From a phage: a stretch of DNA of 64,000 bases. This document shows positions 21,365 to 39,310 of this stretch, in pieces (within the stretch, counting starts at the first letter, position 1; every line of letters starts with the position of its first letter). The stretch is taken from the NCBI GenBank assembly GCA_032986305.1, contig GCA_032986305.1_3672.1. One strand, given 5' to 3'. A program made the translations under genes and the position numbers. The notes beneath the pieces are model-generated. The model was not told where the DNA came from and did not search any database. It saw nothing but the letters and a program-made list of their open reading frames with translations.

Positions 21365-23437
21365 TTATGAGAAGTCTGGCGGGACAACATCTTCTACATA
21401 CCCTTTCAGAGCAACCTGCCCCATATGAAGCACGGTAGAATCTCTAGCGGTAACAGTGATGCTGTCAGACATTACTTGCGGGTATGCCCACACATACTGT
21501 TTTACCTCAGGGTATCTATACTCTATAGTTGCCATGTTTCCGCAAATACATCTCCATAAAAATTCTTGGTAATTCCTAGTTGGGTCGTATCCATATACCG
21601 GAGCAAGCTCTTTACTAGGAACGAACCCTGCAAGGTATTGTATTTCAGACGGTTGCCAACCTAACTTAACGATAGGTATGTTTACAGACTCTTTTGCCTT
21701 TTCAATACCTCCCTGCATCACCCAATCGTAGCACTCAGTGCAGAAGAAATCAAGAGCACCTGCTTCTTTTTTATATTGGTCAGCAAGGTTCAGCTTTTGC
21801 GTAAGCTCGGTTTCCATAATGGTTGGGAAAAACAGCAGAGCTGTCATCTGAGCTGATGCAGCGTGTGCCTTTATTGCCTTTGAAATGGCCGCAATACGAG
21901 CGCCAAGCTTACCACGACAAAATGCTACATACTTGTCGTAAACACCGCCTGTTTTAGGATCGTCAATAGTCCCAATATCTAAGGCATACTCGCCTGTCTC
22001 ATCATAAAACGCCTGTTTTGTAGGGTAATCATAAATACAAGGTCTACGAGTATCGGTATTGAACCACCACCACGGTTCACCAACCTGCATAATCACTGGC
22101 AGGTTGTTTCTCATAGCGGCTGATGCAAAATTCTTAAATACTGCAGTAAGGAAATTCATACCCTCTTCAATGGTTGGAGACAGGAGGTAGCTACAAGGTG
22201 TATATCCTGTTTTAGCGTAGTTATCATTCCAGTCTCTTTGTGTCCATTCCAACGGGCAGGCATCGCTGTAAAGCTCAAAACTTACAGACTGCATAACGTC
22301 GAAGTTATGTCGTTTGGCATTGTACATAAAATCATCATGCCATTTATAAGCTGCAGCGTTTAGCGCCCCTGTTCTGTTTATATACCATTGGGTTCCTGAC
22401 CATGTGTAGTCATAATAATGACTCATACCAACATAATGGTTTATGGTTCCAGTATAGCCCAGACGCTTGATATTGTTCAACACCCTTAAAGGAGATACGT
22501 TCCACATATCGTCATATGCGGTGCAGATCCCAACGTCGTGCTCTTTAACCTGAATATTGTTAAGTTGCATCATTTTCCAGCCCGTGTCTGGCTGAAGCAG
22601 ATCTAGGCGCAACTCACACTCTACATTTTCCGTTCTTGGGTCTGTGCTATTACTTACCCAGTCTTTAGGCATAAGCGGTATTAAAATCCTTCTCACCTGT
22701 CGAGGATCAACACCCATCATGTTGTTGTTCTGATCCATCCCGACGCAGTCCTCGAAATCAATATGAATCTCTGCAACATTCTTATCCTCTGAGATGCTGA
22801 CAGCATATTGAGCTAAAGGAACATAGATGATTGTGCCATCAACAAGGTCTACAGTCATAATCATCTTTTCAGGAGTGGAGAAGTTGCTGGCATTGGTTAT
22901 TGACATTCTGAACCAAAGCTTGGTGTTTCTCATCTCATAGTGATCATCAAACCCAATACCGAAATGGTCATACTTGTCAACTGTTTCCCAAATGCACCCA
23001 GCCATACCTCCATATGTTCTTGACACTAAACGGTTAATACAACAGTTGTCATCTGCAACAATACAGGTACTTTCAGTCTGCTGAGTGGTTGTAACCCAAT
23101 ATCTTGGGTGAAACATTCTCTCCTCAACAGTATCCCAGGATATCCTGTCAAGATTCTCATCTGAAACTATTGTACATTTCGCCCTTTGTGTCCCAATCAT
23201 TACCCCTTGAGATTTTGATGAAAACTCCATAAAGAAGCTTCTTGGCAACCTGTTGGGTAATTTGTCAACAATTTCCACTGGGATCTCAATACTGGTTGCC
23301 CCAACTGGGATAGTTACATCGCCCTCAACATGATTATAATCCCTACCAGGAACGGCAGTATCCTGAACTGTTCGGTAATGAAACTGTGCAGCCATTGTAG
23401 AGTAATCACGGTAAGGTTTAAAAACAGCTGTTGCCAT
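21365..23437 (-). CDS. large structural protein (690 aa), possible fiber or spike with enzymatic domain
   Basis: Long ORF in the fiber cluster; Trp/Tyr-rich C-terminal half; function not resolved. Confidence 0.45.
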   Translation of the reverse strand: MATAVFKPYRDYSTMAAQFHYRTVQDTAVPGRDYNHVEGDVTIPVGATSIEIPVEIVDKLPNRLPRSFFMEFSSKSQGVMIGTQRAKCTIVSDENLDRISWDTVEERMFHPRYWVTTTQQTESTCIVADDNCCINRLVSRTYGGMAGCIWETVDKYDHFGIGFDDHYEMRNTKLWFRMSITNASNFSTPEKMIMTVDLVDGTIIYVPLAQYAVSISEDKNVAEIHIDFEDCVGMDQNNNMMGVDPRQVRRILIPLMPKDWVSNSTDPRTENVECELRLDLLQPDTGWKMMQLNNIQVKEHDVGICTAYDDMWNVSPLRVLNNIKRLGYTGTINHYVGMSHYYDYTWSGTQWYINRTGALNAAAYKWHDDFMYNAKRHNFDVMQSVSFELYSDACPLEWTQRDWNDNYAKTGYTPCSYLLSPTIEEGMNFLTAVFKNFASAAMRNNLPVIMQVGEPWWWFNTDTRRPCIYDYPTKQAFYDETGEYALDIGTIDDPKTGGVYDKYVAFCRGKLGARIAAISKAIKAHAASAQMTALLFFPTIMETELTQKLNLADQYKKEAGALDFFCTECYDWVMQGGIEKAKESVNIPIVKLGWQPSEIQYLAGFVPSKELAPVYGYDPTRNYQEFLWRCICGNMATIEYRYPEVKQYVWAYPQVMSDSITVTARDSTVLHMGQVALKGYVEDVVPPDFS

Positions 23438-25730: not shown

Positions 25731-28700
25731 TTAGTCGTGAGACTCGTTCCAAGGTCCTTGGAAGCTTGAGTTAGAACGGCTTACCACAACAGTAGGGCAG
25801 GATATTGCGACCCCTGTTACAGAAGACGTTGACCATGGTGTGTAGATTTCAACAACAATATCTATGGTTTGTTCACCAAGACCTGTTATCCCTACCGCAC
25901 ACATGCCGTTGTTGTCGTTTCCGTACTTCTTACCTGCAAGGATTTGATGTCCGGCTATCCAAACGTTGAGCTGGGAGCTGGCAAGAGTACCATTCAGTTT
26001 AAAGAAGAATGTTACGTTCTTACCCTGACCTGAAACGTTATCTACGTATCTCCACCTCCAACGGCAAACCCTTTGCTGGGAGTTATATACTGGAGCACAA
26101 TCCCCGTAAGTCCTGTGTGCAACAATTGCACCTTCGAACTGGTTAGCACGGATAACAGAAGCTTCTACACGACCACGGAAGGTACCTCCGGTTGCATCTA
26201 TGGTGCCCCTAAAGCTACCATTATTGGCATAAACATCCCCACGGAAGGTACCACTAGTGGCGTTAACTGCCCCTGTGAAGTTACCAGAACTAGCGTTGAT
26301 GTTGCCTTTCACCCACACATCCATAAATTGGGCGTGCCCGTTCTTGTTAATATACCAACCGTATTTATGGTACCCGTTGCCATCGTAGTTGTTTGACGAG
26401 ATTTCTTGTGCGATCTTGGCAGAGGAGATCGTGCCATTCTCTATAAAAGCGTCTTTCAAGAACGCTTGGTTGTTCTTGATTGCGAAAGCAAGGGTTGCTG
26501 TTCCATTTCCTGGGTTGTATACCGCAAAATTGTTTGCACTAACCATGAAGTAGGATTGAACTTGGCCTCCAGACCCTTCCATCCCCAACTGAATACCTGC
26601 AACATATTTATTCCCTGCGGAGTCTACCTGTATTTTTGTGCCCCATTGAGCATTTACTTTACCCTCTAAGTCGGTTACAGCCTTAGATGTTGTAGCTACT
26701 GCAGCCCTGATCTCAGACACATCCCCAACATCATCCATGATCTCCTGCTTAGCAACAGCAAGTTCTTGACGAATAGCTGACGCTGTGCCGTTGATAAGGT
26801 CCACAGTGGCTTTGTTGGTATCGGAAATTGTAGCATCCAGCGCTGTTTTTGTGGAGGTCAGTTTTCCATCCAAAGCATCAATCGCTTGCTTGTTGGTAGA
26901 AATCTCCCCACGTGCAGAAGTTATCTGCTCTGACAGTGCAGATGTTTTCTGATTCAGCAGGTCAGTGGTGGCCTTGTTGGTATTGGCAATCAAGGTGTTG
27001 AGGTCAGTTTTTGCGGTAGTTATCTTTCCGTCAAGGGTGGTATAGTTTTTAGATACCGTCGCGTTTGTCTGACTAATCTTTTGATCCAGAGTTTCAGATG
27101 TCCTGTTCAGAAGATCTACAGTGGCTTGGTTAGTGCTCAAGATGCTTGCGTCAAGTTCTGTTCTCTGAGTATTGATCTTACCATCCAGAGTTTTATCTCC
27201 GGCTAAATACCCGCTCTCAACTCCATCTATCTGCTCTACCAGCTCACCTTTGGCGGCAACCAATTTCTCATCTAAAGCCTCTGTCTTTTTGTTCAGAAGA
27301 TCAGTAGTTGCTTTATTGGTTGTCTCAATCAGAGATGCCAATCTTCCACTTTCAGTGTTCAGATCGTTGGTGAACTTGTTCTGTGCAGCAACAAGTTTCC
27401 TATCCAGCGCTGTGATATTGCCATTGACATCCTCAAACTTCTGAGTTGTCTCTGTAACTACCGCACCTATTCTGTCTCCAAGTTGCTGGAATGCCTCATC
27501 TACCCTACCATCCATGTATTTATTAAGCTCTGTGACACGATTTTCAACCCCTTCAATAGAGGAATCCAAAGTGCTCATCAACTCTTTATAAGTTTCTGTC
27601 TTTTTGAATTCAGCATCTATCTGAGGCATCAAATCCTCGATAGAGGTGTAGCAGCGTGCAGCGCATTCTACAAACTGAGAGCTACCAAAAGCGTTTGTGG
27701 TTCGAATATACCAATAATAAACCTTATCGTTCTGCAGGCCTTCAGATGTCCAAGTTGAACCAACACCCATACGGGTGGCGTTTGAAGTAATGGTTGCATC
27801 ACTGGTATCTGGCAATCTTGTCATCCCAGATGTCCAAAAGTCATACTGGGTGCTTACACTAGCCAAGTCTCTGCTGTGCGGGATCAAGGTGATAGCAAAG
27901 TATCCCTGCTTAACCTCTACAGAAACCGGAGCTTCAGGTGCCTGAATGTTAAACTCGCAGTACGCTTCTGGAGATACACCGCCTTTATAAGATGTTGCAA
28001 CCACGGTTGCTGTGTATGACCCTTTGGTCAATCCTTCTACGCGGACAAACTGCTCGACTGTTTGTGCTGTCCAAATAATCTCTCCGTTCTTTCTTACCTG
28101 CACAATGTTTTGAGCATAAGTCCCAACGTTGTCCCAAGCCAAAACACCGTGCGTCACTTCCCCAGCTTGAAGAACAGAGTATCTGAAGTTTTGCGGTTGA
28201 GCTACACCAGATGGAGATATCGGAATATTTACATCTCCAGAGTCTGGAAGTTGCCCTGTGGCATCATTCCACTCTTTAGCATCTTGACGGAGTTTTACCT
28301 TGACACCGCCCTTTTTGGTGAACTCCCATTCAAGAACCCTCATTTCTTGGCCTACTATACCAATACTTGGAAGGTCCATCGTAACGTAACGCCCAGGTTT
28401 AAATTTAAAACCTCGCATATTGCAGGTTACTTCAATAATCCTGCCAGCTCTGGCACGTCTTAAGAATATTGCAGAAACACGTTGAGCCTGATAAGGACTG
28501 GTAACAAAACGATAATCTATATCAATTATCTTTCTTTCTCCGTCCTTCTCCACCCACTCAGGAACGAACACTGATGGGAAGTCTGTTTCAGAATACCCTT
28601 TGGTTGGACTGGTGAATCTGCCAGTTATTGTGTTGGATCTTTTGTCAAATGAGGCTTCCGGATAGATCTTAACCTCACCACAGACACAGTCCTCACTAAG

Positions 28701-29570
28701 TGTCATTGTTGCCGGACCATAGTATGCACCAACTAGTAAACCATACTTACCAGCAACATAACTAAGATCTGCACCGCAAGCTTTCAGCATTTCTGCCATA
28801 ATACTTGCTGGGGCCTCATCCATGTCAAACTCACCATTAATGGTGTAACGACGCTCACTGGTTCCGTCTGCGTTTCTTACAGCCTCGTCACATATGTTGG
28901 CAGCTTCCTTGAAGGACTCCCAGTTGATAGTTTCGTCGGGACATTTGAGGTACGTTCTTAGATAGTCCAGAATCACCAAGGCAGCGTTATTGGTATACAC
29001 CTCCTTACTGATACGAGGATCATAACATTTTTTACCAACCTTGACGAGTGTAACGTTTGGCAACCCAAAAGGAAACTTGTTAGGGTCAAACTTGAAGCTG
29101 GCACGTAGCCAACTGATCCCTCTGCCTATCATGTCTGGTGACCATGAAGGGCAGTGTGTGCCCATGAAAGGATCAGAGGTTTTCCTGTCGTTATGTAACT
29201 CCCACGATACCAAATCGCCATACGAAGAAATAGGATTACCGTCGATAAGTATATCTTCTATGCCTTCCAAGGGATGATTAGCAAGAACAATAGCACAATG
29301 AAGGGTTCTGTCCCTGTCCTGCTCCAAAAACGCAAGCAATCCAGATGTGCGTGTCTTTCCATATACTACAGAGCAAGGTGCAGCAGAAGATCTGAGAAGC
29401 TTTTGTCTATCTTGCTGACTTCTGTAAGATTTGTTGCCCTCGAAAATCTTATCCAGAGTTCTGGTGGTAACAGTGTTCAGGCTGTCAGCCAGAGCTGCCT
29501 TGGATGCGTTCCAGTCATAACTTGAAGATCTTGCAGAAGCAACGATGTTATCAATCATTGCAATTGGCAT
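25731..29570 (-). CDS. lambda gpJ-like central tail fiber / tip attachment protein (1279 aa)
   Basis: Segments recalled as gpJ-like: YRFVTSPYQAQRVSAIFLRRARAGRIIEV, FN3-like YDFWTSG ... VYYWYIRTTNAFGSSQFVECAA, and KYVAGIQLGMEGSGGQVQSYFMVSANNFAVYNPGNGTATLAFAIKNNQAFLKDAFIENGTISSAKI; long coiled-coil in the middle. Confidence 0.65.
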   Translation of the reverse strand: MPIAMIDNIVASARSSSYDWNASKAALADSLNTVTTRTLDKIFEGNKSYRSQQDRQKLLRSSAAPCSVVYGKTRTSGLLAFLEQDRDRTLHCAIVLANHPLEGIEDILIDGNPISSYGDLVSWELHNDRKTSDPFMGTHCPSWSPDMIGRGISWLRASFKFDPNKFPFGLPNVTLVKVGKKCYDPRISKEVYTNNAALVILDYLRTYLKCPDETINWESFKEAANICDEAVRNADGTSERRYTINGEFDMDEAPASIMAEMLKACGADLSYVAGKYGLLVGAYYGPATMTLSEDCVCGEVKIYPEASFDKRSNTITGRFTSPTKGYSETDFPSVFVPEWVEKDGERKIIDIDYRFVTSPYQAQRVSAIFLRRARAGRIIEVTCNMRGFKFKPGRYVTMDLPSIGIVGQEMRVLEWEFTKKGGVKVKLRQDAKEWNDATGQLPDSGDVNIPISPSGVAQPQNFRYSVLQAGEVTHGVLAWDNVGTYAQNIVQVRKNGEIIWTAQTVEQFVRVEGLTKGSYTATVVATSYKGGVSPEAYCEFNIQAPEAPVSVEVKQGYFAITLIPHSRDLASVSTQYDFWTSGMTRLPDTSDATITSNATRMGVGSTWTSEGLQNDKVYYWYIRTTNAFGSSQFVECAARCYTSIEDLMPQIDAEFKKTETYKELMSTLDSSIEGVENRVTELNKYMDGRVDEAFQQLGDRIGAVVTETTQKFEDVNGNITALDRKLVAAQNKFTNDLNTESGRLASLIETTNKATTDLLNKKTEALDEKLVAAKGELVEQIDGVESGYLAGDKTLDGKINTQRTELDASILSTNQATVDLLNRTSETLDQKISQTNATVSKNYTTLDGKITTAKTDLNTLIANTNKATTDLLNQKTSALSEQITSARGEISTNKQAIDALDGKLTSTKTALDATISDTNKATVDLINGTASAIRQELAVAKQEIMDDVGDVSEIRAAVATTSKAVTDLEGKVNAQWGTKIQVDSAGNKYVAGIQLGMEGSGGQVQSYFMVSANNFAVYNPGNGTATLAFAIKNNQAFLKDAFIENGTISSAKIAQEISSNNYDGNGYHKYGWYINKNGHAQFMDVWVKGNINASSGNFTGAVNATSGTFRGDVYANNGSFRGTIDATGGTFRGRVEASVIRANQFEGAIVAHRTYGDCAPVYNSQQRVCRWRWRYVDNVSGQGKNVTFFFKLNGTLASSQLNVWIAGHQILAGKKYGNDNNGMCAVGITGLGEQTIDIVVEIYTPWSTSSVTGVAISCPTVVVSRSNSSFQGPWNESHD

Positions 29571-31235: not shown

Positions 31236-31568
31236 TTAAAGTGCTTCCAAGGTAGATACTGATTGGTCGAACATGTTCAACCTTATCGGATCTACAACTT
31301 TTCCGCTTTTCGAGACGATGTTTTCTGCATCCTCGTCTAGAGCCAGAACGTTGACATAAAACAATTTACTTTTCTCGCAAACTGGGTAGACAACCATGTT
31401 GCCAAACTCGTCCTCGGCCTCATAAGTGTCTTCAGTTTCTGTGTAAATGAGCCCGACAACCTCTACAAGAAGGGTGTTTTGCAACACCTCATTCTCGTAA
31501 AAGCCGATTTCGTCCATGAAACCATTAAAATCCTCCCTGTCAGTAAACCCAAGGGTAAAAGTATTCAT
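31236..31568 (-). CDS. hypothetical acidic protein (110 aa)
   Basis: ORF, start overlaps the stop of the 1479-aa fiber gene. Confidence 0.4.
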   Translation of the reverse strand: MNTFTLGFTDREDFNGFMDEIGFYENEVLQNTLLVEVVGLIYTETEDTYEAEDEFGNMVVYPVCEKSKLFYVNVLALDEDAENIVSKSGKVVDPIRLNMFDQSVSTLEAL

Positions 31569-34500
31569 TATTCAACACTCTCCATCATAAGCTGGGTGTC
31601 TGTCAATGCAGAGTTCCAAACTCTTACATCTTTAATATGACCAAACAAATGTCTTTCTCCTGTCGCTGTTTGACCGCCGAGACGGATGAGAGCGCCTCCT
31701 GCCAGGAATTCCCAAGAAGATTGTGTTTCCGTGCTCACCAGACCGTTGGCAAAAGAGCAGGTTTTACCATCTTCTTTTATCCTGAACCCCATCTTCAACT
31801 TACGTGCTTTAGCCATCTCATAAACACGTCTGTTTGAACCACCAATATCGCAATATGGATAACCATCTTCTGCAATATTCGCTGCAGAGCCAAACCCCAT
31901 GATAAATGCAGCGCCGGATTGATGACCCTCTGTATCAATAACCCTAGGAGCTGCGTTAGGAGCTTTTCCCCAACCTCTCCAGTTGGCATCCACAGTAGCG
32001 GCGATGGTGAACGGTCTAGGTGCTAAATTATCAGTCATTGGGAATTTACAAAGGTCTGCTGCCCTAGTCACTGGTGAAGACCCTGTAGGGATAAACGAGG
32101 ACTCACAAGATCCTAACTCAAACTGAGGTATTGCGACGTCAATCCAATCCCCTGCGGCGTGTTGAGAACCCTCCGGCGGGGCAATCTGGAACTGGCACCC
32201 AATATTCATGTCAGAGGCCACTGCCTCAAACGTAGCAACAACCCTTATCCAAGCAGGTCCGGCTGTTTGCCATCTCTCAGCTTTTACTTTAATTCTCCCG
32301 GCTGCACCACCTGTTGTTTTAACTTCAAGTGTTGACAGGTTAACATAGGCATCACCCTGGAATACTGTGGTGGATCCGTTATACATGTCGAATCTTACAC
32401 GCAGTCTCTGGTGAGCTTTACCACCTCTTGCAATAATAGATCCAGTACAAAATTTCTCAGCACCTGTTACATCTGCACCTCGGGTGGCTGGAACTGTAGC
32501 CAGGTTTAACGCCGTTGTTTCTACACCGGATACGTTGCTTACTGTAAATCTTGCACCTTTTGTGCCGTTGGTGTTTGTTACAGTGTTGCCGACCGTAATC
32601 TGTGACTGGGCTCCCCATTTGCTCGGGTCTTCACTGTTAAGCATCAGATTTGTCCTTTGACCTTCAATGAGCAGACCATCTCTTTCGAAACGTGGTTGGT
32701 TTGCCTGTGCAACAGCCATGACACCGCGCTTAGTGAAATATGTTGCTGTAGAAGGTCTGGAGAACACCATCTCACCTTCACCTAGTACAGGTTTTAGATT
32801 AGAGGTTAAAGGCAACCACAGGTCAGGCATGACTGGGGCAGTTGTACTTTCTGGGAAGCTCGTTCTCTTCCAAGGGCTCCAGTTCATTCCGCTGCCAGTG
32901 TTATTATAGTACCTTTCCCACGTTCCCCCAAGATACATTTTATATATCTGGACACAACCTGTACCTTCGTTGGCAGAGTTTCTAAGCACGATCAGCGTAC
33001 CAGCCATCTGCTGCCCTGGTGGGTAGTGTCTTTCCGCTGTGGCGTTGGCATTTGCCTCTTGATGGTAAATACCTTCGCGATCCGCTTTGTAATCGTTAAG
33101 GTCACTAGTCCCCAACCCTTGACCACGGTGCTGAATAACTTTGTTCCACGCTCTGTGGTTACCCTGCTCTATGGAACGGGTGTACAGCTGATCTAAACGA
33201 CCTGCCATCTGGAAAGCATAGTTTCCAGAAAACGCCACAGACAGACCGCCAACAACCATCGAACCTTCTGGCCCGTTGACGTTGCCAGCCATTATTTTGG
33301 ACGGATTATTATTTCCGAACTGGTTGTTCCAGTCTGCACCTGTGTGGCATACAAAACCACCAGGGGCCGAGAAAGTACCGTCTTTGTTGAAATTGTAGAA
33401 TCTGTGAGCGGAACCTACAACATCACGAACAATAACTTGACCAGCTTCTGGAGTAGACCTGAACTCTGCTTGGCCTTGGAGGCCAGCACCATTGCCGCAT
33501 TTAGAGGTAAACGTACCGTTAGTCAGGTCATCTGTCCCATCCGATGCGCACTGGAATCCTGCATTAGAGAATAACGCCTTTCTAGGACTGCCGTAGCACA
33601 AATAATCAATACCGTCTGCCCATAGCTCGACTTTTGGCATGTTCATTTTGCTCATCACCGCATAGCGTTCAGCAGTGCCTATATAGTGCCACTGTGTGCC
33701 GCCACCAGTGTAGAACCCAGAGGTACCTTTGAAGTCAACAATAGGTCTGGTGTTGGTATTGTTATCTCCAAGAACAGCCAGATTTAAATCTGCTGACTGG
33801 AGAGGTGCAACGAACTTAACACCGTCCTGATTGTTTGTTACAGAGCCAACTTGATAATCTTGCTCTCTGGTAAACACTTCGACAACATTTCTACTTGCGT
33901 ATATGCTGACAGGGAAAGCACGAGCCTCTGCATAGAAAGCAACATACTCTTGTTTACCCCTTGTCGGAGCAACCATCCCAAGAAGTGCTTTTTCATTTTG
34001 ATAGAAATTCACTACCCCGTAGAAAGAGTCCCCTCTATCTGTCCAACCGCCAGTTCTATAGTGGCACTGTAAGGTGGCGCAGTTCATAGGGTCACCGCCA
34101 GATGACGATCTGGTGACTAAGGTAATATCAGTGCCAGTTGCTGGAGCATAATACGGATCTGTTCTAACGATGATTGGGTAATATTTCCCATCTTCCATCC
34201 CTGCAGTTCTTGGCAGTGTTAAGAAATCTTTGACACCCGCAGCTATAGGAACTTTGAACAGATTCTGAGCATCTGCCAGGGTTGTAGCCCCTGTACCACC
34301 TGCAGCTTGAGGTAAAGGCTCCCACTTGGCCTTCCGGTTGTTATAAACACCCCACTCAAGCGTTCCTTCACCTTGCTCGTCCATACCGCCATCCCAGATG
34401 ACCATCTTGGCGGCTTTCTTAGATCCCCAGAAACCTCTTTCTGCTCCTGAACTGCGGATCCATTCTCCAAGTCCCCAGTTTGCCATCTGACCGTTCAGAT

Positions 34501-36007
34501 CACCAACCTGCATATATTTAGGACAATCTAAGACCCCATCCTCACGGAAACCTAAATATCTATGAGTTTCAGATCCTTTTGCACCTTTGTGCAGGTGGAT
34601 TGTTAACCACGCCCTATTGTCGTTTCTTACCTCGGAGTAGATCCTATAACCATGTTCAAGAACACCATCGGTGTTATATTTATCCCCATGGAGAATACCT
34701 GAAGCAGATTTAACATCTCCTGAGTATTGAGCTAAGTAAAGGTGCCCGAAAGCAGGGGAGTTGTTTTTACCAAGGCCGATATGAGATCTGAAGGTGTCAT
34801 CATTCCGAGGTCTGACCATCGGCTGCCATGCAGTCCACTGGTTTGTGTTGGCCTGATAGGTTCTCAAATACCAAACATCCACGTTAGAGAATGGATAGTA
34901 TTCCTGACGACAGCCTGTGCCACCGTTAGCATTGTTCTGCCAAACAATCAGGTGACCAGCACCAGAACCTGCAGGATAACCATTTGCCTCAGTTGCATTA
35001 GCAGTCATCGGCTGGTAGTATATGCCGTCCTGATTACCAGTCAAGTTATTGATATTGAAATTTTCCTCAAGGGCTGCACGTTGCTTATAGAAAGCACCGA
35101 TATTGATACGGACTCCAGCAGCATCTCTGGCTCCTGTACCGCCTTGCTCTATAGCAAGAGGTTGCCACGAGGCTGTTTGTTGGTTCCACATACCCCAACG
35201 ACCTGCTGCATCAAGCTGCAAGTACCCTGCCGTGTTTAAATCATCTCCGGCACGGATAACTGTTCTTGTTGGGTTGTTTGCCTCCAGGCGTTTAAATTCA
35301 TCACGAAGTGCTATTCTTTTTGTTGTTGCTACACCGTTGGTTACTGCAATGGTATACATGGCTCCAGAGGTAGCGCCACGGAAAACACCATCAACAGTCG
35401 TAGTATCACGACGAGATACCACACCGTTCAGAAATTTTTCACCAGCTGCTTCAGAAGGGTAGTTAGTAGTTCTTCCCTCTTCAATAACTGCAGGACCAAC
35501 AAAGTTGACAAGGTGAATAACATCACCTACAGTATGCACTGTACCAAAATCTACCCGCTGTGCAAGCGCTTTAGCATCGTTGGCTGTCTGAACCGTAACA
35601 TCCATTACATCCTGTACAGACTGCCCCTCGGCTGTCATGATCATAGATGCGCCAATGGTAGACTCCAGCTCCTCCCTTAAGGACGGGTCTGTATACACCA
35701 TCCATGCAGCGTCGGTGATCCCACCGTCAGAGTATGGTGAAGACAGTGCAGGAACAGTATGTGGAAATTCGCCTTTCCAACGCAGGTAGAGGTCTTCCTC
35801 TTCGAAGTAGGCAAAATCCATTGGGCCGTTTAACTTACCACCTTCCTTAAAGGAGATTACATGAGAAACAGTCCCATCCACATGGACAACATCGCCAATT
35901 TTTACACGACGGGTCAGGTCTGGTTGTTGAACAACCAGGTAATCATCCTCTGTCACTGCGGTAGTGGCAGGAAGAGATTCAATTCTGACAACTTTAATAT
36001 CAGCCAT
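31568..36007 (-). CDS. long tail fiber protein (1479 aa) with shared N-terminal attachment domain
   Basis: N-terminal about 100 aa homologous to the 38642..39310 product (DDYLVVQQPD..TRRVKIGDVV / FKEGGKL..DFAY); internal GGTGATTLADAQNLFKV and QGGTGARDAAGVRINIG fiber-type repeats; AGGAG before ATG. Confidence 0.65.
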   Translation of the reverse strand: MADIKVVRIESLPATTAVTEDDYLVVQQPDLTRRVKIGDVVHVDGTVSHVISFKEGGKLNGPMDFAYFEEEDLYLRWKGEFPHTVPALSSPYSDGGITDAAWMVYTDPSLREELESTIGASMIMTAEGQSVQDVMDVTVQTANDAKALAQRVDFGTVHTVGDVIHLVNFVGPAVIEEGRTTNYPSEAAGEKFLNGVVSRRDTTTVDGVFRGATSGAMYTIAVTNGVATTKRIALRDEFKRLEANNPTRTVIRAGDDLNTAGYLQLDAAGRWGMWNQQTASWQPLAIEQGGTGARDAAGVRINIGAFYKQRAALEENFNINNLTGNQDGIYYQPMTANATEANGYPAGSGAGHLIVWQNNANGGTGCRQEYYPFSNVDVWYLRTYQANTNQWTAWQPMVRPRNDDTFRSHIGLGKNNSPAFGHLYLAQYSGDVKSASGILHGDKYNTDGVLEHGYRIYSEVRNDNRAWLTIHLHKGAKGSETHRYLGFREDGVLDCPKYMQVGDLNGQMANWGLGEWIRSSGAERGFWGSKKAAKMVIWDGGMDEQGEGTLEWGVYNNRKAKWEPLPQAAGGTGATTLADAQNLFKVPIAAGVKDFLTLPRTAGMEDGKYYPIIVRTDPYYAPATGTDITLVTRSSSGGDPMNCATLQCHYRTGGWTDRGDSFYGVVNFYQNEKALLGMVAPTRGKQEYVAFYAEARAFPVSIYASRNVVEVFTREQDYQVGSVTNNQDGVKFVAPLQSADLNLAVLGDNNTNTRPIVDFKGTSGFYTGGGTQWHYIGTAERYAVMSKMNMPKVELWADGIDYLCYGSPRKALFSNAGFQCASDGTDDLTNGTFTSKCGNGAGLQGQAEFRSTPEAGQVIVRDVVGSAHRFYNFNKDGTFSAPGGFVCHTGADWNNQFGNNNPSKIMAGNVNGPEGSMVVGGLSVAFSGNYAFQMAGRLDQLYTRSIEQGNHRAWNKVIQHRGQGLGTSDLNDYKADREGIYHQEANANATAERHYPPGQQMAGTLIVLRNSANEGTGCVQIYKMYLGGTWERYYNNTGSGMNWSPWKRTSFPESTTAPVMPDLWLPLTSNLKPVLGEGEMVFSRPSTATYFTKRGVMAVAQANQPRFERDGLLIEGQRTNLMLNSEDPSKWGAQSQITVGNTVTNTNGTKGARFTVSNVSGVETTALNLATVPATRGADVTGAEKFCTGSIIARGGKAHQRLRVRFDMYNGSTTVFQGDAYVNLSTLEVKTTGGAAGRIKVKAERWQTAGPAWIRVVATFEAVASDMNIGCQFQIAPPEGSQHAAGDWIDVAIPQFELGSCESSFIPTGSSPVTRAADLCKFPMTDNLAPRPFTIAATVDANWRGWGKAPNAAPRVIDTEGHQSGAAFIMGFGSAANIAEDGYPYCDIGGSNRRVYEMAKARKLKMGFRIKEDGKTCSFANGLVSTETQSSWEFLAGGALIRLGGQTATGERHLFGHIKDVRVWNSALTDTQLMMESVE

Positions 36008-36042: not shown

Positions 36043-38640
36043 TTAAAGGTACAATCCACGGTATTGAGCATAAAGTCCCAGACCGCGAAGGATTTCGCCA
36101 GAGTGATAGCCTACCGGATCAGAAACTGCCCAGCAGCCGTTTAAAACATTATCCCCGTTAATGAAGTGGTGCTTTTGCAGTAACTTCACACAGGCTTCTA
36201 CAACAATATCTATTTGAGGTATTGTCTCTGAATACCCGCACAGACCTAGCCAGCAGCAACCTGCAAGCCATTCACCTACCACCCACATCCTGTCCCCTCT
36301 GTCTTGATAAGAATATCCACCAGAGGTGTTAAAGTCTGTAGGTAGATTTCCTGAGTGAGAGGACTGGAATCTGTTGAGGAACCATGCCCATTTCTGGCAG
36401 AACAGGAACAGTCTTTCATCAACAGGTTCTTTATGTTTCTTAAGCTCATATAGTGTGCGACACGCAGCAACAAAGGCTCTTGATTGGAGTTTAGAGTTAT
36501 CTACCATCTCCCACCAACCAGTCAACCCCTCATTACCTCTCTGCCATACGTAGCGGGATGCAACTGGTCCTTCTGTTTTAAATGTGTTATTATACCAAAC
36601 TTGGGAGTCGTACATAAATCCAATCGTATTTGCCAATCTTTGACGATCTATGTTTTCCGCACCCATACAGTAGACTACCGGATATTGCATTCCGGGGTAG
36701 GGCCAATTTGGCCTTTCCTCTAGAAGATAATTTTCCTTATCTATCACCTTTCCGGCAGGGAACACACCTGGAGTGTGTCTGTATGCGCCTTGCTTGTAGT
36801 TTCTGACATAGCAATCACCAACCTTGGCTGTTGATTCTGTCTTGCTTGCCATCCATACACTAAACCAGATCAGATAAGCATCCCTATCTGCAACATAAAA
36901 TTGTGGCAGCGTGTTGACGCAATACAGATCGAACAAGCCATTGCCTATCTGCCTGTCGCTCAGATTGAAATCTACAGAGGTAATTCCTTTAGGGTTAGCA
37001 AAGAAAGGTTTAATCTCATCTTCTGTGTGATGAGGTTGTGTTGGGTCTAGTTTAAAATCACCTAGGGTAAGAGTTTCTGTTATCCATTGTCCATTAGTGG
37101 CATATAGATCAGCATACCATAACCAACGGTCTTTGTCAAGAAATTTGACCCTTATCATCTCATCATCTGATCGATAAGTTACTGAGTTTAAAGAAATCTC
37201 TCTTCCAAAATTGAAAGTTACCTTGCCTCTTGCTATGTTGCAACGGGTGAAGTTGTCGGAGTGGTTATAAATGTCGGTATCATACTGCATACTAACACTA
37301 GCGCCACCGCTTACGACAATGTTTTCCTCTTTTGGTAAGAGATACGGGTTACCATCTTTACCAACCACCTCTACGAAATCAGTAACCTTGGCAACTGTCT
37401 CTGTTACCTCTGCCCCTCCAAAAGGGACACCTATCCTATACTGTTTTTTGTTATTGTTGCCATCGTTAAGGATGAAGTGTGGCTGGAACAGAACCCCTTC
37501 TCCTCCGAAATTCATAACAATTTCAGCATCTCTGCCTATCTTGTATGTAGTCCCTTTTTGAATTATTTCGCAAGGCTGACGTGCGTTCATTCTAAAATTG
37601 ATATACCCGTCGCTGTCCCTGCTCATGACAGGAACTGTTCCTGCGACTAGACAAGTACCATCTGTGAACGGTGCCTTAATTAACGTGGTCTTTCTAAACA
37701 GTTTGTCGTAGGCATTTATATCGCTGAAATTAAGCAGCTTATTATAAGACTGCTTAAACGCGGTGTAATACTTTTCCTCACCTGTCAAGGTGTAGAGTTG
37801 ATAACAAGCGTCACACCACATTTCTTCCCCGTCCAACTCTGGGGCTTGATTGTCTGCAACCACGTTTATAGGATTTACAATTACAGGGGATCCAGCAGGT
37901 ATCACTGATCCACCCTGCTCTTGTGGCAATCTCACACAGTAGGTTACCTTGTGGCTGCCTGTAACACCCTTATCCTGCAGTTGGATTGTGCCGAACTCTA
38001 CAGACGTATGACCGCTGTCGGCTATGCTACCGTTAGCCCAATAGCGATTACCATCCCATGCTATATACCACTCAACCCACCAACTTAACCCAGATGTTGT
38101 CCAATTTGGGTTAGCATCTGTGCCGCCGTAAACATCAGAGTCTACAGTGTTTCTTCCTAGCACACCGTTATACGCTTGGAATGCCTTATCTAGGTATTCA
38201 CCCCATGTCGGAGATCCGGCTGGGATTTTTCCTCTACCATTGGTAAAAGACACCACTACATCTTTAAACCCGCCATGTGATGGAACCCCATCTGTGGATA
38301 ATGGGTAGTGGGACAATCTTTGCATTTTACTTTCTACTGCATAGGCACCCAGAAGATGACTGTTGTAGGCTTCCCAAGCTTCTTTGGCCCTATCTAGGTA
38401 AAAATCGCTTTTTGATGCCCTGTATGCCTCAATGTACCCCAGAATCAACACAGCCTGAGCTTCATGCATTGCCCAATCATTATTTATCTTACTTCCTGAC
38501 CAACCTGACGCTATAAGTCCATCCTGGTTTACCAGTTTGTTCTGCGTGGGGAGATTGGTAATGCCTGTGTTGTTATCGAGGCACTTCCTGTGCCCCTCAA
38601 TCATCTGAAATACGTTATCAATGTTGTGTTGAATACGCAT
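36043..38640 (-). CDS. tailspike-like protein (865 aa), possible glycan depolymerase module
   Basis: No N-terminal attachment domain; Trp/Tyr-rich, possible glycoside-hydrolase-like regions (speculative); start overlaps the stop of the attachment-domain gene. Confidence 0.45.
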   Translation of the reverse strand: MRIQHNIDNVFQMIEGHRKCLDNNTGITNLPTQNKLVNQDGLIASGWSGSKINNDWAMHEAQAVLILGYIEAYRASKSDFYLDRAKEAWEAYNSHLLGAYAVESKMQRLSHYPLSTDGVPSHGGFKDVVVSFTNGRGKIPAGSPTWGEYLDKAFQAYNGVLGRNTVDSDVYGGTDANPNWTTSGLSWWVEWYIAWDGNRYWANGSIADSGHTSVEFGTIQLQDKGVTGSHKVTYCVRLPQEQGGSVIPAGSPVIVNPINVVADNQAPELDGEEMWCDACYQLYTLTGEEKYYTAFKQSYNKLLNFSDINAYDKLFRKTTLIKAPFTDGTCLVAGTVPVMSRDSDGYINFRMNARQPCEIIQKGTTYKIGRDAEIVMNFGGEGVLFQPHFILNDGNNNKKQYRIGVPFGGAEVTETVAKVTDFVEVVGKDGNPYLLPKEENIVVSGGASVSMQYDTDIYNHSDNFTRCNIARGKVTFNFGREISLNSVTYRSDDEMIRVKFLDKDRWLWYADLYATNGQWITETLTLGDFKLDPTQPHHTEDEIKPFFANPKGITSVDFNLSDRQIGNGLFDLYCVNTLPQFYVADRDAYLIWFSVWMASKTESTAKVGDCYVRNYKQGAYRHTPGVFPAGKVIDKENYLLEERPNWPYPGMQYPVVYCMGAENIDRQRLANTIGFMYDSQVWYNNTFKTEGPVASRYVWQRGNEGLTGWWEMVDNSKLQSRAFVAACRTLYELKKHKEPVDERLFLFCQKWAWFLNRFQSSHSGNLPTDFNTSGGYSYQDRGDRMWVVGEWLAGCCWLGLCGYSETIPQIDIVVEACVKLLQKHHFINGDNVLNGCWAVSDPVGYHSGEILRGLGLYAQYRGLYL

Positions 38641-38641
38641 C

Positions 38642-39310
38642 TTAGATAGCTCCTGCTATAATCAGTGCCCCGTACCAAGTTAGCCCGTTGTCGTAGGTTT
38701 CTAACTTGAAAATATCTGTTGCACCAGCTGTAAATGTTAGGATAGGATCTCTTCCGTATGCCCATTTAACATTATCAGGCCAATAGACTTTGTTGCCTCC
38801 AGAGGTCTGAGTAATGCATACGGTTATAGTTCTCGCCACCCCTTCAAGGCCTTCTGTTTGATTTTCAAAAGAGATTGTGGTATTTGAAGTTAGTCGAACT
38901 TTAAAAGTGTCCGCAACTTCAAGATCCATATCAAGCTGACCACCAATAGATCCGTAATCAACTATTCTGCCAGAAGAAGTTGCAGCAAGCTCCCCAAAAA
39001 CAGACCAGGCTTTTGCAGACACACCCCCAGCACCCTCTACAGTAGAGTCTGGAAGGATTATTTTAGGATAATCCCCGTTCCACGTGTAGTAGCGCTTGGT
39101 CTCTGGGTCATAAGCAAAGTCCTTCTTGCTCTTAAGATAACCACCCTCTGTGAAATAGACTATTTTGGTAATGCTGAGATCGTTGACAACATCGTCAATC
39201 TTAGCCTTTCTTGTCCCATCAGTCTGATTGACAACCAAGAAGTCATCACTCAGGACTGTTTCTGCATCTTCAAGATCTGGAATTGGTATTGTAGGATAAG
39301 CTACAGCCAT
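38642..39310 (-). CDS. fiber attachment-domain protein (222 aa)
   Basis: Homologous to the N-terminus of the 1479-aa fiber; directly upstream of the 865-aa gene. Confidence 0.5.
   Translation of the reverse strand: MAVAYPTIPIPDLEDAETVLSDDFLVVNQTDGTRKAKIDDVVNDLSITKIVYFTEGGYLKSKKDFAYDPETKRYYTWNGDYPKIILPDSTVEGAGGVSAKAWSVFGELAATSSGRIVDYGSIGGQLDMDLEVADTFKVRLTSNTTISFENQTEGLEGVARTITVCITQTSGGNKVYWPDNVKWAYGRDPILTFTAGATDIFKLETYDNGLTWYGALIIAGAI

Follow-up and report, generated by a model that had tools for sequence, protein, structure and literature searches.

The gene pair at positions 36043 to 39310 of the phage sequence analyzed here, a 64,000-nucleotide (nt) stretch of contig GCA_032986305.1_3672.1 (GenBank assembly GCA_032986305.1) hereafter referred to as the window, is interpreted as an ancient and portable two-gene tail-appendage module consisting of an adaptor of 222 amino acids (aa) and an 865-aa protein of the (alpha/alpha)6 glycosidase type, a reading to which we assign a probability of about 65%. 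The N-terminal approximately 105 aa of the adaptor, comprising a short peptide and a Tail_spike_N domain, would fix this probably trimeric protein to the virion, while its C-terminal beta-sandwich of approximately 105 aa most likely holds the 865-aa protein. The latter, a virion protein predicted to form a six-hairpin barrel split by two beta-rich insertions, would act on a host glycan during adsorption. A neighboring 1479-aa fiber uses the same N-terminal module, and both proteins are presumably located at the same kind of baseplate-periphery site; this site of attachment on the virion, together with the stoichiometry of the complex, is what we infer.

The gene pair and its distribution

The window belongs to a Vequintavirus (an rV5-like Escherichia coli phage), the region being 93 to 99% identical to approximately 120 Vequintavirus records, including FV3, rV5, and the BASEL phages. 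The minus strand is the transcribed strand for the tail-gene region (approximately 10.5 to 57 kb of the window), and the two genes and their junction are positioned as follows.

38642 to 39310, (-) strand: small adaptor gene, 222 aa (open reading frame [ORF] and translation; matches rV5 gp43, related to phi92 gp140; PHROG 7760)
36043 to 38640, (-) strand: large virion protein gene, 865 aa (rV5 gp42 by gene order, related to phi92 gp141; PHROG 2871)
38638 to 38653, (-) strand: gene junction (GGAG at 38650 to 38653; stop codon TAA at 38642 to 38644; one spacer base; ATG at 38638 to 38640)

Gene order corresponds to that of rV5, in which gp41 is a variable fiber, gp42 an 865-aa “tail protein,” and gp43 a 222-aa protein, and the profiles of PHROG 7760 and PHROG 2871 match the 222-aa protein over aa 1 to 221 (E 6e-119) and the 865-aa protein over aa 1 to 863 (E 0), respectively. 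All three rV5 products (gp41, gp42, and gp43) have been detected in virions by mass spectrometry, and the N terminus of gp43 was likened to that of a tailspike in the same study (PMC3606486). In the BASEL phages, the large protein is annotated as a “lateral tail fiber protein with glycosidase domains”; the lateral-fiber locus is mostly highly conserved, its three large fiber genes being variable, and the assignment of individual genes to the three lateral fibers was described as unclear (PMC8594841).

The stop/start overlap described in the original prediction proved to be a junction with one spacer base (GGAG CTATC TAA G ATG), which reads ...GGAGCTATC on its upstream side, followed by TAA G ATG. 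The GGAG motif is placed 9 to 12 nt 5′ of the ATG of the 865-aa gene, which lies in a different frame from the 222-aa gene and whose frame contains just five sense codons between the upstream stop and the ATG. This arrangement of GGAG and TAA-G-ATG is consistent with translational coupling of the two genes.

The two-ORF layout was observed in 119 of 120 close phage records, each of the annotated records listed showing two features at this position. Beyond these, 13 distant relatives (12 phages and one Burkholderia prophage) were examined, and two close Vequintavirus records were opened in addition. The distant loci are those of Seunavirus FENT2, phi92, Phapecoctavirus ESCO5, Rosemountvirus BP63, Kolesnikvirus phiEa21-4, and Vibrio phage K414, together with the Autographiviridae ISAO8 and PhiAC505, the Grimontviridae 7-11, PKM.Hi.22.6, and A24, and the jumbo phages PBECO4 and pEa_SNUABM_29; the pair is, therefore, present in myoviruses, jumbo phages, and T7-like and phiEco32-like podoviruses, as well as in the Burkholderia prophage. 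In all of the distant phage loci, a gene encoding 157 to 283 aa is located directly before the homolog of the large protein (865 to 1157 aa). The Burkholderia vietnamiensis prophage encodes a large-protein homolog with 25% identity, preceded by a 473-aa gene product whose last 100 aa represent the same C-terminal domain as that of the 222-aa protein (E 4e-23).

In 14 phage loci, the distance between stop and start codons lies between -35 and +3 nt, and in the Burkholderia prophage it is +13 nt; the values seen (-35, -8, -4, -1, +1, +3, and +13) show no constant frame relation. Because the frame relation varies by lineage, these junctions fit translational coupling and not programmed frameshifting; a programmed frameshift or readthrough giving a fused product was rejected on this ground and on that of the lack of a slippery site at the window junction.

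The two parts of the pair are also distributed together on a larger scale. By tblastn, homologs of the large protein were identified in 525 phage records and the C-terminal half of the small protein (aa ~110 to 222) in 513, with counts for the large protein and the small C-terminal half, respectively, of 243 and 241 in Escherichia phages, 101 and 98 in Salmonella, 62 and 58 in Vibrio, 33 and 33 in Erwinia, 23 and 23 in Campylobacter, 12 and 12 in Cronobacter, and 7 and 7 in Aeromonas phages. Most of 90 representative large-protein homologs begin within approximately 20 residues of the same N terminus, without an attachment domain. Three homologs (P0024, P0034, and P0030) carry an N-terminal extension of approximately 280 aa of their own, and a gene for the C-terminal domain is absent upstream of all three, as would be expected if the extension replaces the adaptor. 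These extensions were also considered as fusions of the small protein, a reading that was discarded when phmmer, PHROGs, a hidden Markov model of the C-terminal domain, and hhalign returned no significant similarity (best hhalign probability, 1.4%). No homolog was found in which the C-terminal domain of the small protein is fused before the large protein, apart from P0065, a 293-aa product combining the N terminus of the large family with the C-terminal domain (E 4e-22). P0065 was judged to be a metagenome misassembly and not a true chimera, because its 1322-bp contig (L020) repeats a loop of C-terminal domain and large-protein N terminus with small differences, likely corresponding to strain variants.

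The small protein and its exchangeable N terminus

The 222-aa protein is composed of three parts, the first two of which recur in the neighboring fiber.

39176 to 39310, (-) strand: N-terminal peptide, aa 1 to 45, IPIPDLEDAETVLSDDFLVVNQTDGTRKAKIDDVV (alignments; common to the 1479-aa fiber and to phi92 gp140 and gp143)
38996 to 39175, (-) strand: Tail_spike_N (PF18668) head-type domain, aa ~46 to 105 (Pfam E 3e-10, 40.5 bits)
38645 to 38977, (-) strand: constant C-terminal domain, aa 112 to 222, beta-sandwich; proposed docking domain for the large protein
31568 to 36007, (-) strand: ORF of the neighboring fiber, 1479 aa, downstream of the 865-aa ORF
35693 to 35989, (-) strand: N-terminal anchor region of the 1479-aa fiber, aa 7 to 105; paralog of the adaptor N terminus (BLASTP E 2e-18; PF18668)

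The domain which the original prediction had described as common to the N termini of the 222-aa and 1479-aa proteins was confirmed by BLASTP (38% identity over 99 aa) and by matches of both to PF18668, with scores of 40.5 and 40.4 bits, respectively, that pass the gathering cutoff of 25; the motifs quoted for it are present in both proteins, as SDDFLVVNQTDGTRKAKIDDVV and TEGGYLKSKKDFAY in the 222-aa protein and as EDDYLVVQQPDLTRRVKIGDVV and KEGGKLNGPMDFAY in the 1479-aa fiber. When all ORFs of the window were compared, Tail_spike_N was detected in no further ORF, and the 865-aa protein was found to lack the shared attachment domain, as had been claimed. Neither the C-terminal half of the 222-aa protein nor the 865-aa protein has a counterpart elsewhere in the window. 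The Tail_spike_N region of the adaptor matches, at the sequence level, the N-terminal regions of the solved tailspikes 9occ, 8x8m, CBA120 TSP3, and TSP4, and we propose that the preceding peptide (aa 1 to 45) contributes to the element by which the protein is attached to the virion.

Across the window and 14 phage loci, the last approximately 105 aa, with the motif Q.(T/G).G.NKV.WP..V.W..G..P.L(S/T)(Y/F)..G..D...L.T.D.G.TW.G, are the only alignable part of the small proteins, and the partner in the Burkholderia prophage ends in the same domain. The N termini, on the other hand, are exchanged between lineages: in Vequintavirus and Seunavirus the N terminus consists of the peptide and Tail_spike_N, in phi92 and Phapecoctavirus of the 45-aa peptide alone, and in the two Autographiviridae (ISAO8 and PhiAC505) of the T7 tail-fiber N-domain (PF03906), the pair there being found at the gp17 tail-fiber position, with the internal core proteins on one side and the holin on the other. 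Those of the remaining lineages are other unrelated sequences that lack a Pfam assignment. The adaptor N terminus is usually a copy of the N terminus of a further tail protein encoded by the phage concerned, being paralogous to the gp143 endosialidase N terminus in phi92 (gp140 peptide; E 7e-6), to a protein annotated as “colanic acid degradation” in FENT2 (E 4e-31), to gp70 in phiEa21-4 (E 5e-17), and to a small protein encoded downstream in Vibrio phage K414 (E 7e-9) and in 7-11 (E 2e-9). Being swapped per lineage and paralogous to other tail proteins, the N terminus behaves as a lineage-specific virion anchor, while the C terminus, constant across lineages, behaves as the part which accompanies the large protein. 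Contact between this C-terminal domain and the large protein is most likely, with indirect support from the strict adjacency of the genes, their co-occurrence and co-divergence, and the swapping of anchors.

In the AlphaFold2 model of the 222-aa protein, aa 112 to 222 form a beta-sandwich of moderate quality (predicted local distance difference test [pLDDT], ~75); the N-terminal half was left unmodeled because the input alignment was dominated by Grimontviridae sequences. The best Foldseek match of this model is the trimeric capsid spike gp52 of Pa223 (E 1.6e-4), followed by weak matches to CBA120 TSP4-N (7rfo, 7rfv, and 7rej; E 1e-3 to 4e-3, probability 0.82, low TM-scores). No sequence-profile match of the C-terminal domain to T4 gp10-like XD domains was obtained.

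Fold and putative activity of the large protein

The AlphaFold2 model of the 865-aa protein, computed from a 33-sequence alignment, has a pLDDT of 88 and a predicted TM-score (pTM) of 0.82. According to DSSP, the helices of aa 2 to 96, 269 to 305, and 655 to 863 build a single domain in this model, which is interrupted by two insertions.

38353 to 38640, (-) strand: barrel helices, part 1, aa 1 to 96 (DSSP on model; conserved E60 and Q62 at helix start)
37837 to 38343, (-) strand: beta-rich insertion 1, aa ~100 to 268 (DSSP on model)
37726 to 37836, (-) strand: barrel helices, part 2, aa 269 to 305 (DSSP on model; conserved D270 and E272 at helix start)
36679 to 37725, (-) strand: beta-rich insertion 2, aa ~306 to 654, several beta-sandwich-like units (DSSP on model; PHROG 23426 at aa 482 to 580)
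36046 to 36678, (-) strand: barrel helices, part 3, aa 655 to 865 (conserved Q680, W699, R721, and E849)

The helices assemble into the twelve-helix (alpha/alpha)6 barrel of the six-hairpin glycosidase superfamily, and nearly all of the top structural matches are glycoside hydrolases, whose complete barrels are aligned. Although homologs are only 23 to 32% identical to the window protein, residues E60, Q62, D270, E272, Q680, W699, R721, and E849 are 88 to 100% conserved; the acidic residues E60, D270, and E272 (88 to 97%) are located at the N-terminal ends of barrel helices, a position compatible with an active site. Profile membership of the CAZy families GH8, GH76, GH88, GH105, and GH127 was not reached above threshold by the window protein; among its homologs, sub-threshold matches were recorded to GH76 in 3 of 33 (E 0.003 or weaker) and to GH127 in 2 of 33. 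Earlier annotations based on HHpred describe phi92 gp141, ORF17 of S144, and the ISAO8 homolog as glycosidases or hydrolases.

The 865-aa protein most likely binds a conserved host surface polysaccharide during adsorption, and it probably cleaves that polysaccharide. The split tailspike envisaged by the original prediction, i.e., an adaptor followed by an enzymatic module, is supported in outline by comparative genomics and fold, except that the large protein is no classical beta-helix tailspike or depolymerase: the pair does not display the single-chain architecture of such enzymes, in which a trimeric beta-helix or beta-propeller body follows an N-terminal particle-binding domain. As to the enzymatic look ascribed to the large protein, structure matching returned a glycosidase-type (alpha/alpha)6 barrel, and sequence searches against Pfam and solved structures were empty.

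Alternative explanations, known systems, and neighboring genes

Several observations weigh against an adaptor-enzyme module. The large protein matches neither Pfam nor any solved-structure sequence, shares only 9 to 13% identity with barrel enzymes, so that catalytic residues cannot be assigned, and adopts a fold which also occurs in non-hydrolytic proteins, e.g., epimerases and terpene cyclases. The identity of the C-terminal domain correlates with that of the large protein over 16 pairs (Mantel r 0.76; reached by none of 5,000 permutations), yet this is what any co-inherited neighboring genes would show, indicating co-inheritance and not contact. The model of the 222-aa protein cannot be relied on for aa 1 to 111, where the pLDDT falls below 50, and is of no more than moderate quality in the C-terminal domain. 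The structural matches obtained with it are weak (E 1e-4 to 4e-3, with low TM-scores), and the best of them is to Pa223 gp52, whose terminal knob could be a receptor-binding element in its own right.

This last point would suit an arrangement of independent appendages, in which the 222-aa protein is a complete short fiber with a receptor-binding knob, the 865-aa protein attaches otherwise, and the two genes are neighbors by co-expression only. The Pa223 capsid spike is indeed a self-contained trimer whose C-terminal knob is proposed to touch the host, and a 2026 cryo-electron microscopy (cryo-EM) paper on phi92 lists gp140 as a fiber-like candidate in its own right. A receptor-binding tip would, however, be expected to vary with the host, whereas it is the C-terminal domain that is conserved, over phages of Escherichia, Salmonella, Erwinia, Vibrio, Aeromonas, Yersinia, and Burkholderia, and the anchor that varies; moreover, the presence of this domain tracks the large protein almost one to one, it is gone upstream of the N-terminally extended homologs, and the large protein has no recognizable attachment domain. 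We consequently regard independent appendages as rather unlikely. Far less credible still is the recent disruption of a fused gene suggested by the original prediction, in which a frameshift or nonsense mutation, or else a sequencing error, would have divided a single tailspike gene. The one-base spacer between the genes and the resemblance of the small protein to a tailspike N terminus lacking its body would be accounted for, but the two-ORF layout recurs in 119 of 120 close records and in 13 of 13 distant relatives, down to 25% identity and with differing junction geometries; the large family keeps a conserved N terminus of its own, both products are present in virions, and no homolog was found with the C-terminal domain fused before the large protein. 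These comparative data refute a recent split. The tight coupling of a fiber-like gene to a downstream gene also recalls fiber-chaperone pairs, and a cross-family fiber-plus-chaperone module is known from Alteromonas phages. Such chaperones are nevertheless small and usually not present in particles, whereas the large protein comprises 865 to 1157 aa, has a glycosidase-type barrel, and is found in rV5 virions, which makes a role as assembly chaperone of the small fiber very improbable.

A further alternative, compatible with the adaptor model, concerns only the large protein, which could be a non-enzymatic glycan-binding or scaffolding arm, carrying, e.g., an N4 gp65-type deacetylase fiber. The lack of sequence-level membership in a glycoside hydrolase family and the existence of non-hydrolases among (alpha/alpha)6 barrels are in keeping with such an arm, as are the fusion of P0024 to NCTSP_N and TIM-barrel_NCTSP domains, the position of a gp142-type gene next to the large gene in phi92 and ESCO5, and the high conservation of the pair in Vequintavirus, whereas distal fibers vary. 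Set against this are the 88 to 100% conservation of E60, D270/E272, and the barrel aromatic and arginine residues at an overall identity of 25 to 30%, the whole-barrel alignments to what are nearly all glycoside hydrolases, and the earlier HHpred-based glycosidase or hydrolase calls for phi92 gp141, S144 ORF17, and the ISAO8 homolog. A non-enzymatic arm is, on balance, considered somewhat unlikely, and an adaptor bearing a glycosidase-type protein is preferred.

The closest known counterparts of the pair are rV5 gp43/gp42 and phi92 gp140/gp141, which are direct orthologs encoded in the same order after the sheath-initiator gene, and none of which has been placed in a structure. In phi92, gp140 (157 aa) and gp141 (958 aa) directly follow the sheath initiator gp139, and gp140 differs from the window adaptor in lacking Tail_spike_N, consisting of the N-terminal peptide and the C-terminal domain only. 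A review lists phi92 gp141 as a putative glycosidase; the 2026 cryo-EM study of phi92 reports similarity of gp140 to the Pa223 spike, leaves fiber II unassigned, and never mentions gp141. Pa223 gp52 itself, the best structural match of the small protein, is trimeric, attaches through a short N-terminal segment, and ends in a C-terminal knob; it differs from the small protein in its location on the capsid, its long triple beta-helix, and the lack of a known linked large partner gene, the match moreover resting on a model of moderate quality.

The proposed module would work like the branched tailspike complexes of CBA120 (TSP4-N/TSP2) and G7C (gp66-gp63.1), in which an N-terminal virion anchor is followed, in the same protein, by small beta-jellyroll (T4 gp10-like XD) domains to which a separately encoded enzyme docks. 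Tail_spike_N, the head domain of these tailspikes, is shared by the window adaptor, which also shows weak fold matches to TSP4-N; homology of its C-terminal domain to XD2/XD3 of CBA120 and G7C is not established. Unlike its counterparts, the window adaptor lacks an enzymatic body of its own, and its cargo is an (alpha/alpha)6 barrel without a head domain instead of a trimeric beta-helix tailspike. Architectures consisting of an anchor and a second protein also occur in T7-like podoviruses, as exemplified by the gp37 adaptor of K1E, K1-5, and SP6 and by the anchor-branched depolymerases of the KP32 type. The small proteins of ISAO8 and PhiAC505 are similar to these in that they start with PF03906 at the gp17 position and are followed by a gene for an enzyme-like protein, but the docking domain and enzyme fold are different, and both recur in myoviruses, jumbo phages, and phiEco32-like podoviruses. 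Compared to six-hairpin (alpha/alpha)6 enzymes (GH8, GH76, GH88/GH105, GH48, and AGE-type epimerases; 9 to 13% identity), the 865-aa protein is distinguished by the beta-rich insertions (~170 and ~350 aa) which split its barrel, by being a virion component, and by the lack of an above-threshold Pfam match.

Both genes of the pair have been described and annotated before and occur in hundreds of genomes, and the adaptor concept is well established. No description of the cross-family portability and anchor swapping of this pair was found in the literature searched, the coverage of which was incomplete and did not include the 2012 phi92 paper; the portability of such a socket-and-cargo pair across families represents a modest new point. 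Phages of the rV5-like and phi92-like groups are often considered for therapy, and their broad host range is attributed to a multi-fiber “Swiss army knife.” If gp43/gp42 (gp140/gp141 in phi92) form an adaptor-enzyme unit, they would provide a concrete complex to fit into the fiber II density, and the module would add a non-beta-helix, probably non-trimeric fold to the virion-borne glycan-active proteins. A docking domain that works on the tails of myoviruses, podoviruses, and jumbo phages, if it does so, would offer a handle for host-range engineering by which the (alpha/alpha)6 protein, or other cargo, could be moved between phages.

A bolder version of this proposal, which we advance tentatively, is that the C-terminal domain and the (alpha/alpha)6 protein may constitute a universal “plug and socket,” captured through anchor swapping by at least eight unrelated phage lineages and by beta-proteobacterial prophages; the large protein would then be a non-trimeric enzyme on a trimeric adaptor and, in phi92- and rV5-type phages, might form fiber II or the arm of fiber I, possibly carrying a gp142-type NGR-binding deacetylase.

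Genes of the gp142 type were encountered in three contexts.

Window 21365 to 23437, (-) strand: homolog of the gp142-type protein, 690 aa (E 8e-80), 12.6 kb from the gene pair
Locus L018, 4001 to 9388: P0024 fusion
Locus L002, 12230 to 14389: gp142-type observation

P0024, a metagenomic protein of 1795 aa, joins the (alpha/alpha)6 family to NCTSP_N and TIM-barrel_NCTSP, i.e., to an NGR-glycan-binding deacetylase of the N4 gp65/phi92 gp142 type, and in phi92 and ESCO5 the gp142-type gene is located directly 3′ of the large gene. These arrangements hint that the large protein and the gp142-type deacetylase may share one fiber. P0030 (1512 aa; locus L019, 4001 to 8539) is encoded on a 1.26-Mb bacterial contig between cellulose (bcs) and poly-N-acetylglucosamine (pga) genes, with flanking insertion sequence transposases, a neighborhood which may be coincidental or may offer a clue to the class of substrate.

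Elsewhere in the window, the 1479-aa neighbor is one of the variable lateral-fiber genes and represents a longer allele than rV5 gp41 (1272 aa); its C-terminal approximately 400 aa match PHROG 1419 and PHROG 5939, with a weak match to Laminin_G_3. Positions 25731 to 29570 on the (-) strand encode a 1279-aa protein of the rV5 gp37 type with matches to Phage_Tail_Tip (E 1e-38) and Ig_J_second (E 1e-30), lambda J-type domains which are unusual for a contractile-tailed phage; in BASEL, it is described as a lateral tail fiber protein with an FN3 domain. Finally, the 36043 to 39310 region is also carried by approximately 20 GenBank records (MG0656xx) designated “Campylobacter phage” with Campylobacter jejuni as host, of which 18 align at the DNA level with at least 80% identity and 23 at the protein level, the examples listed being 93.6% identical in DNA and approximately 97 to 99% in protein. 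These records are probably mislabeled or derived from contaminating coliphages.

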